Assembly: GCA_035544895.1 (NCBI GenBank) | Contig: DASZZM010000092.1 | Span: forward strand, 5,852 to 69,851 | Length of the DNA stretch: 64,000 nucleotides | From: Thermoanaerobaculia bacterium | Lineage (GTDB): Bacteria > Acidobacteriota > Thermoanaerobaculia > Multivoradales > UBA5704 | Direction of reading: 5' to 3' | Shown: positions 18,224 through 63,395 of the stretch, piece by piece | How the letters are laid out: each line of letters starts with the position of its first letter | Position numbering within the stretch: position 1 is the stretch's first letter | Notes under the pieces: generated by a model | The model's database searches: none | Seen by the model: the letters and a program-made list of their open reading frames with translations, nothing else | Told to the model about the DNA's origin: nothing | Made by a program: the position numbers and the translations under genes

Positions 18224-20554
18224 CTAGAGCATCTCCAGGTTGGCGTAACGGGCGATCAGCTTGCGCTTGCCGGCGTTCTGGAAGAAGACGGTGATCTTGG
18301 CGTCCTCGCCCTGGCCGTCGAGCTCCAGGACGACGCCCTGGCCGAGGGTGGGGTGGCGCACGCGGCTGCCGCGCTTGAGCGGCCGCCGGTAGGAGGCCGC
18401 CTGGGCTTCGCCCCTGTCGGGCTGGTCTTCCTCCCATGCCTCTTCGGCGAACCGGGCAGAGGCGCCGGAGCCCTGCCCGGCGGGTCGACCGGAAGCGCCG
18501 GGTCCCTGCCCAACTCGATTGGAAGCGCCGCCGAAAAAGGAATAGACGCCTTGCGCGCGGGAATCGAAGCGCCGGGCGCTTTCGGCTCCCGCCGAATAGT
18601 AGAGGGCCGGGCTGTGCCGCACCTCGAGCAGCTCGGCGGGCAGCTCGGACAGGAAGGCGGACTCCTCCTGGTCCTGGTAGCGCCCGGCGATGCGCCGCCG
18701 CCGGCAGCGGGACAGATACAGCCGCTCGCGCGCCCGCGTCATCCCGACGTAGAGCAGCCGGCGCTCCTCTTCGATGTCTTCCGGCAAGCCTTGCGAGTTG
18801 AAATGCGGCAGCAACCCCTTCTCCAACCCGGCCACCACGACGACCCTGAACTCCAGCCCCTTGGCGCTGTGCAGGGTCATCAGCGACACACCGCGGTCGG
18901 CCGCGAGCAGGTCGAGGTCGGTCACCAGCGAGACGTGGTCGAGAAAGGCGGTCAGCAGATCCGCGTCGCCGGCGTTGTAGCTGTTCTTCTCGGTGAACTC
19001 CTGGGCCGCCGAAAGGAACTCCCGGATGTTCTCCAGGCGCGCCTGGTCTTCGGGATCGTCCTTCTTGTAGAGGTCGTCGTAGCCGGTGGCGGCGAGCAGG
19101 CGGTCGAGCAGGGCGGGCAGCGGCAGCTCGGCGGCGGCTTGCTGCAAGTCCACGATCAGGTCGCGGAAGCGCCGCAAGGCAGTGGCGCTGCGCGCCGGCA
19201 GCCCACCCAGCTCGTCCAGGTAGAGGACGTCCCACAGCGGCTGACCGAGCTGCACGGCCTGGTCGCGCAGAAGCTCGAGCGTTGCCTTGCCGATGCCGCG
19301 CGGCGGCTGGTTGAAGATGCGGGCGAGCGAGAAATTGTCGCGCGGGTTGCGCAACACCCGCAGGTAGGCCACCAGGTCCTTGATCTCGGCGCGATCGTAG
19401 AAGCGCACTCCGCCGACGAGCGAGTAGGAGACTTCCTGCTTGAGCAGCTCGTCTTCGAGGGCCCGGGTCTGCGCGTTGGTGCGCACCAGGATCGCCATGT
19501 CCGCCAGCTTGTAACGCCCGCGCAGCCCTTGCAGCGTCTCAACCGCCCACCGCGCCTCGTCCCCTTCGTCGAGGGCGCGATAGAGCTCCACTTTGGCGCC
19601 CGCGCCGCTATCGGTCCACAAGCGCTTGCCGCGGCGGTTCACGTTGTGGGCAATGAGCGCCCCCGACAGGTCCAGGATGCTCTGGGTAGAGCGATAGTTG
19701 CGCTCGAGTTTCCTGACCACTGCGCCGGGAAAGGACTTTTCGAAGTCCAGGATGTTGTCGAGGTCGGCGCCGCGCCAGCGGTAGATTCCCTGGTCCTCGT
19801 CACCGACCGCGGTCAGGTTGCCTGCCGCGCCGGTCAGCTCCCGGATGAGCCTGAGCTGCGCATGATTGGTGTCCTGGTACTCGTCGACGAGCAGGTAACG
19901 GGTGCGCGCGCACACCCGGGCCCGTACCTCCTCGTCGGAGGCCAGCAGCTTGACCGACAGCGCGATGAGATCGTCGAAATCGACTCCGGAAGCCTGGTGC
20001 AGCAGCCCCTGGTAGCGGCGGTAGACGGCGGCGTGCTTGCGGTCGGTGAAGCCTTGGGCCGACGCCTCGAAGGCGGCCGGCTCGATCAGCAGGTTCTTGG
20101 CGCTACTGATCCTGGCGAGCACCGAGCGGGGCGAGAACGCGGTCTCGGAAAGGCCCTCGCCGGCCAGCGCCTCCTTGACCAGCGCGAGCTGGTCGGCAGC
20201 GTCGTGGATGGCGAAGTCGCGCTTGAGGCCGACGCGCTCGCCGTAGCGGCGTAGCAACAGCAGCCCAAAGCGGTGGAACGTGCCGACCGAGGCGGCCAGC
20301 GGATGCGTGCCCAGGAGGTTCTCGACGCGCTCGCGCATCTCGGCCGCCGCCTTGTTGGTGAAGGTCATGGCCGCGATGTGCCCGGGGTCCACGCGGCGCT
20401 CCTCGGCCAGCCACCAGATGCGGTAGGTGATGACCCTGGTCTTGCCCGACCCGGCGCCGGCGAGCACGAGCTGCGGCCCTTCGCCGTGGGTCACGGCGGC
20501 GATCTGCTCGGGGTTGAGATGTCGCTCCAGGCGGGCGGTGACGCTCTCGCTCAC
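18224..20554 (-). CDS. uvrD: ATP-dependent DNA helicase UvrD/PcrA family
   Basis: LNPEQIAAVTHGEGPQLVLAGAGSGKTRV (motif I), LLVDEYQDTNHAQ (II), ...ERNYRSTQSIL (IV), ...TLHSAKGLEFRVV..., plus C-terminal Tudor-like tail. GTG start at 20554 gives MSESVTARLERHLNPEQ. The listed 1218-aa ORF is extended upstream through antisense of the next gene. Confidence 0.9.
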   Translation of the reverse strand: MSESVTARLERHLNPEQIAAVTHGEGPQLVLAGAGSGKTRVITYRIWWLAEERRVDPGHIAAMTFTNKAAAEMRERVENLLGTHPLAASVGTFHRFGLLLLRRYGERVGLKRDFAIHDAADQLALVKEALAGEGLSETAFSPRSVLARISSAKNLLIEPAAFEASAQGFTDRKHAAVYRRYQGLLHQASGVDFDDLIALSVKLLASDEEVRARVCARTRYLLVDEYQDTNHAQLRLIRELTGAAGNLTAVGDEDQGIYRWRGADLDNILDFEKSFPGAVVRKLERNYRSTQSILDLSGALIAHNVNRRGKRLWTDSGAGAKVELYRALDEGDEARWAVETLQGLRGRYKLADMAILVRTNAQTRALEDELLKQEVSYSLVGGVRFYDRAEIKDLVAYLRVLRNPRDNFSLARIFNQPPRGIGKATLELLRDQAVQLGQPLWDVLYLDELGGLPARSATALRRFRDLIVDLQQAAAELPLPALLDRLLAATGYDDLYKKDDPEDQARLENIREFLSAAQEFTEKNSYNAGDADLLTAFLDHVSLVTDLDLLAADRGVSLMTLHSAKGLEFRVVVVAGLEKGLLPHFNSQGLPEDIEEERRLLYVGMTRARERLYLSRCRRRRIAGRYQDQEESAFLSELPAELLEVRHSPALYYSAGAESARRFDSRAQGVYSFFGGASNRVGQGPGASGRPAGQGSGASARFAEEAWEEDQPDRGEAQAASYRRPLKRGSRVRHPTLGQGVVLELDGQGEDAKITVFFQNAGKRKLIARYANLEML

Positions 20555-20701
20555 CTCCGCAGTCTCGCCGAGCCCGCGGGGCTTGGCAAGCCCGCGCAAG
20601 GCGCCGGCGGCGCTGCAGGCCGGACGGCGGGAATCCGCCCCTGCCAATGGCGCGTTGCGTGTGTTGTAGTACTGTACGCGGCCGGGCGCCTGTCTAGGCG
20701 C

Positions 20702-20734
20702 CGATGTCCGCCCGATGTCCGCCCGATGTCCGCC
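20702..20734 (+). repeat. perfect 11-bp tandem repeat x3 (cgatgtccgcc) spanning the candidate start codons of the ClpX-like gene
   Basis: Sequence ...gcg ccgatgtccgc ccgatgtccgc ccgatgtccgc cgccattgtg...; each unit carries an ATG in a different frame. Only the third (20726) is in frame with the downstream ORF. Confidence 0.85.
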
Positions 20735-21844
20735 GCCATTGTGAGCCAGCCAGCCATGAAACCGGTCGAGATCTACAACTTCCTGGAACAGCACGTCATC
20801 GGCCAGCAAGAGACGCTGCGCTACGTCTCGGTGGCCATCTTCAAGCACCTCCAGGGCGAGAAGTACGGCAACCTGCTGCTGATCGGCAACTCCGGCACCG
20901 GCAAGACCACGATCATGCGCGCCGTGGAGGCGCTCTACGGCGCCTACCCGGAGTTCAGCGAATACCGCGTGGTCCTCATCATGAACGCGAGCACCCTCGC
21001 CGCCGAGGACGGGTCGGTCGATACCAGCCGCCTGTTCAGCCGCCTCGAAGAGCGCGTCCGCCTGCTCCTCGGTGGCGCCGCCTCGGCCGAGGAGGTCGTG
21101 CGGGCGATGGAGCGCGCCACCATCTGCCTGGACGAGATCGACAAGATCTCCGGAGTGATCGGCGGCAAACCCTACGTGACCGGGATCAACATCCAGCAGG
21201 CCCTGCTGACGCTGATCGAAGGCGAGCGGGTGCCGCTTGCGCTGACCGCGGTCCGCGGCGGGATCCCCGAGTCGACGTCGCTGTGGATCGATACCAGCAG
21301 GATGCTCTTTCTGTGCGCCGGAGCGTTCGAGAACCTCTACGACCAGGTTTTCGCGCGCGTCACCTCGGCCAAGAGCGGTGTCAAGCTGCCGACCACCACT
21401 ACTTATGTCAACGGCAAGATCCAGATTCGCGAGTACTTCACTCTGCGCAACCATTTCCGTCAGGAGGATCTTTTCGAATACGGGATGCAGCCCCAGTTCC
21501 TGTCCCGCTTCGACAACGCCGTCATTCTCGACGATCTCAACCCCGGCGTGCTCTGCCGTATCTTCAAGGAGCCGGCCAGCGGCGTCTTGCAGCTGTCGCG
21601 GAATTTTTTCCGCAAGTACGGGATCGATCTCGAGATCACCGACGACGCCGTGCAGAAGATCGCCGAGGAAGCTGCCAGGAGCAGCCGCATCGGCGCGCGC
21701 GCCTTGAAATCGGTCTATGGGCGGGTCATCAAGCCTTTCGAGTTCGATCCCTTCGCCCAGGGACAGATCGAGGCGGCCGGCGGACGTCACCGCCTGGTCA
21801 TCGACGAGTCCCTGGTGAGCAGCGCTCTGAAGCCGCCGGTTTAG
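20726..21844 (+). CDS. ClpX-like AAA+ ATPase lacking the N-terminal zinc-finger domain
   Basis: KPVEIYNFLEQHVIGQQETLRYVSVAIFKHLQ...NLLLIGNSGTGKTTIMRAVE...ICLDEIDKISG...ARALKSVYGRVI... follows the ClpX/HslU family layout, but there is no C4 zinc ribbon. Alternative start at ATG 20756 (MKPVEIY). Confidence 0.7.
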   Translation: MSAAIVSQPAMKPVEIYNFLEQHVIGQQETLRYVSVAIFKHLQGEKYGNLLLIGNSGTGKTTIMRAVEALYGAYPEFSEYRVVLIMNASTLAAEDGSVDTSRLFSRLEERVRLLLGGAASAEEVVRAMERATICLDEIDKISGVIGGKPYVTGINIQQALLTLIEGERVPLALTAVRGGIPESTSLWIDTSRMLFLCAGAFENLYDQVFARVTSAKSGVKLPTTTTYVNGKIQIREYFTLRNHFRQEDLFEYGMQPQFLSRFDNAVILDDLNPGVLCRIFKEPASGVLQLSRNFFRKYGIDLEITDDAVQKIAEEAARSSRIGARALKSVYGRVIKPFEFDPFAQGQIEAAGGRHRLVIDESLVSSALKPPV

Positions 21845-21861
21845 CAGCCGGCCTCCCAATC

Positions 21862-23922
21862 TTGGCCCTCCCCGATCCATCGCCGCGCGCGCGGAGCGCG
21901 ATCACCGCCGAGGTGGCGCGGCAGACCGCCGACGCGTTGGCCGCCAAGCACGGCAGCGGTCATGCCGAGCGCATCCGGCTCGGCGTCGAACAGGCGGCGC
22001 GCCACTGGTGGGCCGAAGATGGCGGCGCCGGGGACTTCAGCGCTTTCTGCCTGGCCAACTTCCTGGCCGACGAAGCCGCCCTGGCGAAGTGCTTCGCCCG
22101 GGTCGAACAGGTTCTCGAGCAGGTGGACGGGCATCTCTTCGAGGCGAGGCGCGAGCTCACCACCCCGCTCGATCTCGATACCGGCCCCCTGTCGCAGGTG
22201 GACCGCCTGTTCGCCGACGTCGACCTCGCGCCGCACGTCGACGAAAACCTGTTCCGCGCCAGGGTGGCATTCGTGGCGCTCCTCAACTTTCCGGTGCATA
22301 CGCTGGGCGAGCGCCTGGCGGGCGGCGCGGCATGGGACCGCGAGACCTGGGCGCGGTCGCGCATGATGGACCGCTTCGCCGCGCGCGTGCCGGCGGAGGT
22401 GCAGCAGCACGTTTCCCTGGCCTTCACCGCGGCCGAGGAGTACGTCGGCTCGTACAACATCCGCATGGACCGCCTGATCGACGCGCAGGGCCGACCGCTC
22501 TTTCCTCCCGGACTTCGCCTCCTCTCCCACTGGGGGCTGCGCGACGAGCTCGCGGCGCACTACGCCAACTCCGACCGCCGGGCGGCGCTCGCCCGGCAAC
22601 GCCTGATCGCCCGTGTCATGGAACGGATCGTGCGCCAGGAGATTCCGGCGGCGGTCGTCGACAACCCCGAGCTGCTGTGGGAGCCCGAGAGCAATCGAGT
22701 GCGGCCGGCGGGCGGCGGCGAGGCGGCCGGCGGCGCTGGCGGCGCTGGCGGCGATGGTGGCGAGCGTGAAGCGGACCGCCGCTACGCGCACCTTCTGGCC
22801 ATCTGCCGCGCCGTGCGCCAGGTCGATCCCTACAGCCCGGCGGCGCCCACCTACATCGCGCGCAAGTTCGAGCGCGAGCGGCAGATTCCTGAACGGGAGG
22901 TCGAGGCGCTGCTCGTCTCGGTGCTCGAAGCGCCGGAGGCCGAGCGGCTGGCGCGGCTGATCGAACGCCGCCTCGGCCGGCCACTCGAGCCGTTCGACAT
23001 CTGGTACTCCGGCTTCAAGAGCCGCGCCGCCCATGGCGAGGAAGAGCTCGACGCACGGACGCGGGCGCTGTATCCGACGCTCGAGCGGTTCCAGGCCGCG
23101 GTGCCGGAGATCCTGGAGCGGCTAGGCTTCGCGCCCGACAAGGCGCGCTGGCTGGCCGAGCGCATCATGGTGGACCCGGCGCGCGGCGCAGGCCACGCGC
23201 TGCCCGCCATACGCCGGCAGGACCGCGCTCACCTGCGCACCCGCCTCGGCCGGGACGGCATGGACTACAAGGGATTCAACGTCGCGCTGCACGAGATGGG
23301 GCACAACGTCGAACAGGTGTTTTCGCTCAACGGCATCGACCACTGGTGGCTCGCCGGCGTGCCCAACACCGCCTTCACCGAAGCCTTCGCCTTCGTCTTC
23401 CAGAAGCGCGACACGGAGCTGCTCGGCCTCGCCCCGCCCGCCGAGGAGGCGCGTCGCGCCGATGCCCTCGGCACCCTGTGGAACACCTTCGAGATCGCCG
23501 GCGTCTCTCTGGTCGACATGCAGGTGTGGCACTGGCTGTACGACCATCCGGAGGCGGCGGCGGCGGAGCTGCGGCAGGCCGTGCTGGCCATCGCGCGCGA
23601 CGTCTGGAACCGTTACTTCGTTCCTCTCTTCGGGGCGGCGACCCGCGACGCGGAAATCCTGGCCATCTACTCGCACATGATCGCCTATGGGCTCTACCTG
23701 CCCGACTACGCGCTCGGCCACATCATCGCTTCCCAGGTGGCGGGCCGTCTGCGCGAAGGCGACTTCGCCGGCGAGCTCGAGCGCCTGGCGCGGCAAGGCC
23801 GCCTCACCCCCGATGCCTGGATGCAAGGCGCCGTCGGCGGCCCGCTCTCCGCCCGCCCCCTGCTGGACGAAGCACGCCAGGCGCTGGACGCCCCCGGGCT
23901 GAGCAGTTCCGCCGCCGGCTGA
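21862..23922 (+). CDS. putative zinc metallopeptidase (HExxH...E, gluzincin-like), about 690 aa
   Basis: Long frame-1 ORF continuing from a TTG at 21862, 18 bp after the ClpX-like stop; ALHEMGHNVEQVF...(about 26 aa)...FTEAFAFVF fits HExxH plus a downstream Glu ligand. The listed ORF 20704..23922 is spurious upstream of 21862. Confidence 0.6.
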   Translation: MALPDPSPRARSAITAEVARQTADALAAKHGSGHAERIRLGVEQAARHWWAEDGGAGDFSAFCLANFLADEAALAKCFARVEQVLEQVDGHLFEARRELTTPLDLDTGPLSQVDRLFADVDLAPHVDENLFRARVAFVALLNFPVHTLGERLAGGAAWDRETWARSRMMDRFAARVPAEVQQHVSLAFTAAEEYVGSYNIRMDRLIDAQGRPLFPPGLRLLSHWGLRDELAAHYANSDRRAALARQRLIARVMERIVRQEIPAAVVDNPELLWEPESNRVRPAGGGEAAGGAGGAGGDGGEREADRRYAHLLAICRAVRQVDPYSPAAPTYIARKFERERQIPEREVEALLVSVLEAPEAERLARLIERRLGRPLEPFDIWYSGFKSRAAHGEEELDARTRALYPTLERFQAAVPEILERLGFAPDKARWLAERIMVDPARGAGHALPAIRRQDRAHLRTRLGRDGMDYKGFNVALHEMGHNVEQVFSLNGIDHWWLAGVPNTAFTEAFAFVFQKRDTELLGLAPPAEEARRADALGTLWNTFEIAGVSLVDMQVWHWLYDHPEAAAAELRQAVLAIARDVWNRYFVPLFGAATRDAEILAIYSHMIAYGLYLPDYALGHIIASQVAGRLREGDFAGELERLARQGRLTPDAWMQGAVGGPLSARPLLDEARQALDAPGLSSSAAG

Positions 23923-24195
23923 GCAGGCCCGCGCCTGACACCCGGCGTTCGCCGCGCGGAGGCGCCGGAGCCGGCGTCGTCCGCGCCGTCCGCAGCGGTC
24001 CTACGCCAGCAAGCGGCTTTCGCCTATTGAAGCAAGCCAGGAAGGTCAATACCCTCAAGGAGTTAGAGAGGCGCGTGTGGTCCGGATGTGCTAGGATGGG
24101 CCGCTCGCTACAGTGAGATTCCCGCATAGTCGAGGCGATGCAGCGGTAGACCACGCGCGATCCCTGGCTATGAGAGGTGAAACGAGGAGATCGTC

Positions 24196-62870: not shown

Positions 62871-63395
62871 CTATCCGGGCTGAGCGATCTTGAGCAGCTC
62901 GACTTCGAAGCGCAACGAGGCGCCGGGGGGAACGATGGCGCCGGCGCCTTGCCGGCCATAGCCGAGCTCGGGGGGAACGACCAGTCGCCGCTTGCCGCCC
63001 ACGCGCATGCCGGCGATGCCCTCGTCCCAAGCCTTGATCACCTGGCCCTTGCCGAGCTGGAAACGGTACGGCTGCTTGGGATCGAGACTCTCGTCGAACT
63101 TGCGCCCATCGCTTTCGAGCCAACCGGTGAACAGGACCTCGACGATGCTTCCGGACTTCGCTTCCGCGCCTTCGCCGACCTTGAGATCGAAATACTTCAA
63201 GCCCGAAGGAGTGACGATCTCCTTGGCCTCTTCTTTCGCCGGTTCCACCGGCTTGAGCTCCTGCTGCGCCACGCCAGTGGCCGGCGGCGTGGATTGCACG
63301 GCCATCGCGGCCATCGCAGCCATCGCGGTCATCGCAGCCATCGCAGCCATGGCGGTCGCCAGGAGAGCAGGCGCCAAAAACCGGAAATGACTCAT
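62871..63395 (-). CDS. FKBP-type peptidyl-prolyl cis-trans isomerase, secreted
   Basis: …GLKYFDLKVGEGAEAKSGSIVEVLFTGWLESDGRKFDES…FQLGKGQVIKAWDEGIAGMRVGGKRRLVVPPELGYG…GASLRFEVELL is an FKBP domain; signal peptide carries (AMA)n. Confidence 0.85.
   Translation of the reverse strand: MSHFRFLAPALLATAMAAMAAMTAMAAMAAMAVQSTPPATGVAQQELKPVEPAKEEAKEIVTPSGLKYFDLKVGEGAEAKSGSIVEVLFTGWLESDGRKFDESLDPKQPYRFQLGKGQVIKAWDEGIAGMRVGGKRRLVVPPELGYGRQGAGAIVPPGASLRFEVELLKIAQPG
63301..63354. repeat. 9-bp tandem repeat x6 (gccatcgcr) inside the FKBP signal-peptide coding region
   Basis: gccatcgcg gccatcgca gccatcgcg gtcatcgca gccatcgca gccatggcg encodes AMAAMAAMTAMAAMAAMA on the minus strand, in frame. Confidence 0.8.

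Follow-up and report, generated by a model that had tools for sequence, protein, structure and literature searches.

Among known systems, the locus described here is closest to variable-number and short tandem-duplication polymorphisms of bacterial intergenic DNA, such as those used in strain typing, to the repeat tracts of phase-variable genes and, in its neighborhood, to ECF promoters; direct repeats bound by regulators are a further comparison. Haemophilus influenzae lic1, which has alternative ATGs, and the Neisseria opa genes carry many-copy tracts, (CAAT)n and (CTCTT)n respectively, that follow the start codon or codons within the translated sequence. In H. influenzae hifA/hifB, with (TA)n, and N. 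meningitidis nadA, with (TAAA)n, the tract separates the -35 and -10 elements or immediately precedes them. Response regulators of the OmpR/PhoB family bind direct repeats one helical turn apart, and PHO boxes are 11-nt direct repeats. Phase variation is high-frequency, reversible switching within a clonal population, at about 1e-5 or more (PMC11868660), and phase-variation surveys (PhasomeIt) apply a cut-off of at least five copies for units of 4 nt or longer (PMC6321876). The consensus of sigmaH/SigR-type ECF promoters is GGAAT-N18-19-GTT (PMC10012870).

We analyzed a 64-kb stretch of DNA (the window) from the metagenome-assembled genome (MAG) of an uncultured soil member of the Thermoanaerobaculia (Acidobacteriota), in which a short tandem repeat lies between two divergent genes. 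Coding frames were assigned by third-position GC content (GC3). The repeat and the genes around it are as follows:

18227..20554, minus strand, uvrD/pcrA helicase gene, 776 aa from GTG 20554, with UvrD-helicase, UvrD_C and Tudor domains
20701..20734, plus strand, perfect tandem repeat of an 11-bp unit (CCGATGTCCGC / CGATGTCCGCC), detected by TRF
20756..21844, plus strand, ClpX-like AAA+ ATPase gene, 362 aa, start MKPVEI, identified by domain searches and alignment to ClpX
21862..23922, plus strand, gene of the operon partner, 686 aa, with a HEMGH motif, conserved downstream of the ATPase

A 201-bp divergent spacer separates uvrD/pcrA from the ATPase gene, and the repeat lies within it, as the earlier note on this DNA had placed it. 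The uvrD start differs among annotations: that of NCBI gives 776 aa (GTG 20554) and that of Logan 791 aa (TTG 20599). No significant Pfam, NCBIfam or PDB match was found for the 686-aa protein, whose gene is followed by one for a 1380-aa Peptidase_C25 protein.

Protein relatives of the ATPase were found at 80 loci in species-representative genomes, with 67–80% identity and all from MAGs of Thermoanaerobaculia or other Acidobacteriota, and JGI metagenomes gave 80 further ATPase loci with at most 80% identity. No relative above 80% protein identity was found in the one-genome-per-species set or the JGI metagenome contigs. Of 124 loci, 90 had uvrD as the divergent neighbor, and the ATPase gene was followed by that for the 686-aa protein in 107 of 125. 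One member of the uvrD cluster (P0011) proved to be only the C-terminal part of the protein, on a short contig of unrelated sequence, and was set aside. The ATPase aligned from its own residue 3 to Escherichia coli ClpX from about residue 64, an alignment start that coincides with the beginning of the AAA+ module, just past the zinc-binding domain. Its match to the ClpX model began at position 61 and scored 150 bits, against an NCBIfam equivalog cut-off of 359. Canonical ClpX has the zinc-binding N domain, a GYVG pore-1 loop and an IGF ClpP-docking loop and scores above that cut-off, whereas the window ATPase has no zinc-binding N domain and, in the E. coli ClpX alignment, carries DGSVD in place of GYVG and GVKLP in place of IGF. 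The ATPase and the HExxH protein may form an uncharacterized ATPase/metalloprotease module.

The exact unit CGATGTCCGCC begins at 20702, 20713 and 20724 in both the pattern search and the repeat search, and TRF reported period 11, 3.1 copies, 100% matches and a score of 68 for 20701-20734. The sequence of 20700-20760 reads g CCGATGTCCGC CCGATGTCCGC CCGATGTCCGC cgccattgtgagccagccagcc ATG, with a perfect lag-11 self-match run of 23 bases. The window was simulated 100 times under a first-order Markov model; over periods 7–15 the longest run was 13, and no simulation reached 22 at any of these periods. Since simulated runs were far shorter than the observed one (13 versus 23), the repeat is a real duplication and not an effect of composition, and a chance origin was ruled out. 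TRF, unit search and simulation thus agreed with the earlier note that an exact three-copy 11-bp repeat occupies 20702-20734.

The array is the sole perfect one in the window with at least three copies and a period above 6. No further 11-bp units beyond chance were found in the 64 kb (two extras with one mismatch versus four expected), and a dispersed motif or repeat family was therefore ruled out. The Logan assembly SRR12277192 was 100% identical over 11 kb, the three copies included, although it was probably built from the same reads; with two assemblies in agreement and a tract of merely 33 bp, an assembly artefact is unlikely. The top TRF score in the window belonged to a different array, a 9-bp unit in 6.3 copies at 63299-63357, which is in frame and encodes (AAM)n in the signal-peptide-like N-terminus MSHFRFLAPALLATAMAAMAAMTAMAAMAAMAVQS... 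of a minus-strand gene from ATG 63395, whose product we take, by eye, to be FKBP-like.

A 90%-identity cluster of the ATPase protein had five members, namely the 372-aa HVT18910.1, the 362-aa form and proteins from three other strains, represented by contigs L162 (SRR12277193), L163 (JGI 3300086543) and L164 (JGI 3300062721). All three contigs have the same gene order of uvrD, ATPase and 68x-aa gene as the window, and nucleotide identity to the window in the ATPase gene was 99.0% (L162), 95.2% (L163) and 98.3% (L164). With the intergenic regions aligned, the window shows three 11-bp copies, L164 two, and L162 and L163 one each. From the GGCGCC hairpin to the ATG, the four leaders read as follows:

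Window, three copies: GATGTCCGCCC GATGTCCGCCC GATGTCCGCC GCCATT GTGAGCCAGCCAGCC
L164, two copies: GATGTCCGCCC GATGTCCGCC GCCATT GTGAGCCAGCC
L162, one copy plus a 10-bp duplication: GATGTCCGCC GCCATCCGCC GCCATCC GTGAGACAGCCAGCC
L163, one copy: GATGTCCGCC GCCATCC GCGAGCCAGCC

Strains therefore differ by whole units (1, 1, 2 and 3 copies) instead of holding a constant three, in keeping with the gain or loss of units that the earlier note had envisaged. The two-copy allele equals the one-copy allele plus exactly one CCGATGTCCGC duplication, and the simplest history is therefore one, then two, then three copies by successive tandem duplication. The sequences flanking the tract, GTAGTACTGTACGCGG and ATGAAACCGGTCGAGATCTAC, are conserved. 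Whole-unit copy differences between conserved flanks in close strains are expected of a neutral variable-number tandem repeat (VNTR), and the alleles here show them, with flanking genes 95–99% identical. The repeat was absent from all of about 160 more distant loci.

Other short duplications were observed in the same 55-nt leader. One of them is present in the window:

20744..20751, plus strand, AGCC AGCC, a 4-bp tandem duplication that is a single unit in L164 and L163

The 10-bp duplication in the L162 leader is of GCCATCCGCC. L163 carries a second 11-bp slippage event of the intergenic region, a tandem duplication GACGGGAATCC GACGGGAATCC at about 2480-2505 of its contig (aligned to about 20622-20630 of the window), which doubles the putative -35 GGAAT motif. 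In the three pairwise alignments from which indel density was taken (L162, L163 and L164 against the window), the ATPase leader had two or three gaps per comparison, with three gaps in 53 bp against L162. In the roughly 150 bp at 23891-24037, L162 showed 11 gaps and L164 about five, and the spacer at 21843-21855 had one to three indels in every strain. Over these three comparisons, indels were not in excess in the leader when set against non-coding DNA elsewhere in these genomes. The non-coding DNA of this species is generally indel-rich, and the leader is not exceptional, because other non-coding stretches are equally indel-dense. Strain indels were also seen in coding sequence: the uvrD linker before the Tudor domain (18466-18530) has in-frame indels of 15–33 bp, and a Gly/Ala-rich low-complexity stretch of the 686-aa protein (22701-22762) is itself a 9-bp repeat array and has a 9-bp strain indel (22726).

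The leader pattern is not fully tree-like, since the window has the AGCC duplication in common with L162 but shares GCCATT and the 11-bp duplication with L164. Such a pattern indicates that the leader has changed repeatedly or recombined. Because all four strains differ there and the pattern is not tree-like, some elevation of its mutability is likely.

Each repeat unit contains an ATG. They lie at 20704 (frame 1), 20715 (frame 0) and 20726 (frame 2), in three different frames, and the third alone is in frame with ATG 20756 and the ATPase ORF, exactly as the earlier note had stated. The three upstream ATGs are as follows:

20704..20706, plus strand, upstream ATG 1, frame 1, opening a 1072-codon ORF that is a high-GC artefact
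20715..20744, plus strand, upstream ATG 2, frame 0, with a 9-codon uORF MSARCPPPL and stop, also in L164 and absent from L162 and L163
20726..20755, plus strand, upstream ATG 3, in the ATPase frame, which would add MSAAIVSQPA; the start in HVT18910.1, with its equivalent in frame in 2 of 4 strains

The 1072-codon ORF (20704-23922, plus strand) crosses two real genes and is in the wrong frame for the ATPase gene. We call it an artefact because of its GC3 profile, which is 0.35–0.48 in that frame across the ATPase gene.

The earlier note had placed the repeat on the start codon of the ClpX-like gene. The conserved start is instead ATG 20756, and the repeat lies 22–54 nt upstream of it. An ATG at this position (MKPVEI) was present in 125 of 137 distinct relatives, and the AAA+ module begins there. 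No in-frame ATG occurred within 12 codons upstream of the MKPVEI start in 101 of the 137, and an in-frame stop was found within 10 codons upstream in 23. N-terminal extensions of 9–10 codons are confined to the window and L163. Given the conservation of this ATG in the family and the ClpX alignment from residue 3, ATG 20756 is the most probable, and ancestral, start of the ATPase. The 372-aa NCBI model HVT18910.1, which alone starts the ATPase on the third repeat ATG, is probably an over-extension, with the 362-aa form favored by these comparisons; the analysis thereby corrects a probable start-codon over-extension in public annotation (372 versus 362 aa).

A rival reading takes the third repeat ATG as the true start in this strain; the last unit of the repeat would then be translated (MSAA...), with the array reaching partly into the ORF. 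We consider this unlikely. The 372-aa form and the shared frame of ATG 20726 and the ATPase favor it, as does the comparable in-frame 9-codon extension of L163, and in many distant relatives, which begin ATGTCC-ATGAAG (an in-frame ATG exactly two codons upstream in 28 of 137), a Shine-Dalgarno sequence is positioned to serve the first ATG. The same ATG is, however, out of frame in L162 and L164, the start of the family lies at or two codons from the MKPVEI position, and the gene calls of both Logan and JGI start at 20756 (362 aa; the JGI calls are from the related strains). The extension also falls outside the ClpX alignment, and no Shine-Dalgarno sequence was recognizable before any ATG of the repeat, 20726 included. 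None was recognizable before ATG 20756 or before the downstream 686-aa gene either; 95 of 137 relatives have one at the ATPase gene.

With the start at 20756, a change in unit number cannot put the ATPase out of frame, because the repeat stands in front of the conserved start. The earlier note had expected such a shift, which the four strains did not bear out. The proximal upstream ATG is 30 nt from the MKPVEI ATG and in frame in the window, and 27 nt and in frame in L163 (a 9-codon extension). In L164 the distance is 26 nt and out of frame, with a uORF MSAAIVSQP* that ends as an ATGA overlap with the main start, and in L162 it is 41 nt and out of frame, with the uORF stop 11 nt upstream. All upstream ATGs are out of frame in L162 and L164, and the 362-aa ORF from MKPVEI is nonetheless intact in all four strains, across the one-, two- and three-copy alleles. 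The proximal upstream ATG (ATGTCCGCCGCCAT; ATGTCC) is itself retained in all four and resembles the ATGTCC-ATGAAG start of the 28 relatives; it could be a remnant start still in use.

Two promoter-like motifs and a hairpin precede the repeat:

20630..20656, plus strand, GGAAT-N19-GTT, putative ECF-type promoter-like motif, the single such site in 64 kb
20666..20679, plus strand, GTAGTACTGTACGC, putative promoter element, invariant in the four strains and aligned with CGTAnAA of the relatives; GTAGTACTGTAC at 20666-20677
20685..20702, plus strand, GC hairpin or palindrome GGCGCC-N6-GGCGCC (tgtcta loop) abutting the 5' side of the repeat; stem invariant and loop variable in the four strains

GGAAT[GC]C was found upstream of the orthologous gene on the coding strand in 87 of 154 relatives, versus 6 on the other strand. 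In relatives (loci L003-L151) the extended motif is cGGGAAT[GC]CC, located 90–140 nt before the ATPase start. After GGAAT[GC]C, about 18–19 nt are followed by CTTAGGATA or GTT, and further downstream by a -10-like CGTAnAA element and then a GC-rich hairpin. Distant relatives have different GC-rich hairpins at the equivalent relative position. The window motif at 20630-20656 fits the sigmaH/SigR consensus in sequence and spacing (GGAAT-N19-GTT against GGAAT-N18-19-GTT; PMC10012870), whereas most relatives have CTTAGGATA rather than GTT at the -10 position, and the likeness is one of resemblance only. The motif suggests that the ATPase operon may be under stress-sigma control across the Thermoanaerobaculia.

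A simple scan of 20300-21000 found no sigma-70 consensus promoter and no terminator. The GGCGCC hairpin may be a 5'-leader stem-loop, and no significant RNA fold was found in the leader besides it (z = -0.24; -0.24 to +0.97 in the four alleles); a structured RNA leader or riboswitch-like element was dropped for want of a folding signal in the four alleles. In E. coli, uvrD is an SOS gene, which was the motive for considering a LexA/SOS box at the invariant GTAGTACTGTAC. That candidate was also dropped: there was no second half-site, and a literature search gave no acidobacterial LexA motif.

The repeat directly follows the hairpin, with both conserved promoter-like motifs upstream of it, and is most likely transcribed leader, with the transcription start placed by prediction from these motifs. 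A change of promoter spacing is unlikely because the repeat is downstream of the promoter-like motifs and not between them. The altered spacing of an upstream element that the earlier note had offered as a second effect would thus probably not occur.

Taken together, the array is likely to be a recent, lineage-specific 11-bp tandem triplication in the untranslated 5' leader of the ATPase operon, VNTR-like and probably near-neutral. Replication slippage or unequal alignment would have made it from the single-copy sequence GGCGCC-GATGTCCGCC-GCCAT, and copy number would then drift between strains (1, then 2, then 3), alongside the other short leader duplications. The ATPase would still be made from ATG 20756, the repeat altering only the length of the leader and the number and phase of upstream ATGs. 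The tract would then be transcribed and not translated, and its polymorphism near-neutral. The copies are perfect, and therefore indicate a duplication of recent date, not a set of binding sites maintained by selection. Against this reading stand the differences among all four strains in so short a leader, in a pattern not fully tree-like, the retention of the proximal upstream ATG and the lack of a Shine-Dalgarno sequence before ATG 20756.

The same strain differences can be read as those of a contingency or tuning locus, in which each unit gained or lost puts the upstream AUGs into a different phase and heritably switches or grades translation of the operon, an interpretation that we regard as improbable. 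Its outcomes would be an in-frame extension (window, L163), an ATGA-overlap uORF (L164) and a uORF ending 11 nt upstream (L162). It draws on the copy number that differs among 95–99% identical strains and on four alleles that amount to four uAUG configurations, with the L164 uORF MSAAIVSQP* overlapping the main start. The missing Shine-Dalgarno sequence at ATG 20756 and the precedent of lic1, with several ATGs and a repeat, also speak for it. The upstream ATGs, however, lack a Shine-Dalgarno sequence as well, and so does the downstream gene, so its absence at the ATPase is not special. The first upstream ATG would drive the 1072-codon nonsense ORF, which argues for poor initiation. The uORF peptides are not conserved, the indel density equals that of other intergenic DNA, and in-frame alleles (2 of 4) are close to the chance expectation of 1 in 3.

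The earlier note had called the arrangement a classic phase-variation configuration. Identical tandem units (3.1 x 11 bp), copy number that differs between strains and ATGs in three frames are indeed features of contingency loci, and this part of the description stands. The rest does not: the tract is off the functional start, being neither in a translated ORF nor, as far as the predicted promoter placement goes, between core promoter elements, and its three copies are below the cut-off of at least five for longer units (PMC6321876). A modest effect on translation, by N-terminal extension, uORF coupling or interference, is possible, because there is no Shine-Dalgarno sequence and the proximal ATGTCC is kept in four strains. 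That a free-living soil acidobacterium has here a genuine tuning or contingency element, with re-phased uAUGs in front of a stress-promoter-driven operon of a non-canonical ClpX-like ATPase and an HExxH protein, seems to us very improbable. If true, SSR-type phase variation would come to include an 11-bp unit, a cytoplasmic ATPase and a non-host-associated phylum, and bacteria that are not host-associated would offer an unusual example of expression tuned by a repeat.

It is most improbable that the direct repeats are an operator for an OmpR/PhoB-type regulator controlling the ATPase operon or the divergent uvrD: the 11-bp periodicity would set the copies on one helix face, the location is a divergent regulatory region and the architecture resembles the 11-nt direct repeats of PHO boxes, but the unit is present only once in L162 and L163 and the array is missing from about 160 relatives, contrary to the conservation expected of an operator, the perfect identity of the copies suggests that they were duplicated recently, the 64 kb contain no further units above chance level, and the repeat has its place in the leader, past the promoter-like motifs.

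As a probable recent leader triplication, the array documents a small variable-number repeat in the conserved operon leader of an uncultured member of the Thermoanaerobaculia and has little importance in itself. Its neighborhood, a class-wide operon of a ClpX-like ATPase and an HExxH protein behind a conserved ECF-like motif, is of greater interest.

Compared with the described systems, the array shares with lic1 and opa a unit length not divisible by 3, several ATGs spread over different frames and a copy number that varies between strains. It differs from them in lying upstream of a conserved start, in having three copies and in leaving the ORF intact at any phase. With hifA/hifB and nadA it has in common a position inside a divergent intergenic region, whereas the window tract is downstream of the GGAAT...GTT and CGTAnAA-like motifs and of the leader hairpin. 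Relative to VNTR typing loci, the tract is very short (33 bp, three copies) and is known from four metagenome-derived alleles. It is like them in that its copies are perfect and head to tail, strains differ by whole units, the flanks are conserved and the position is non-coding, and further in that the array is not conserved beyond the species. A small leader VNTR is a kind of feature that is already known.
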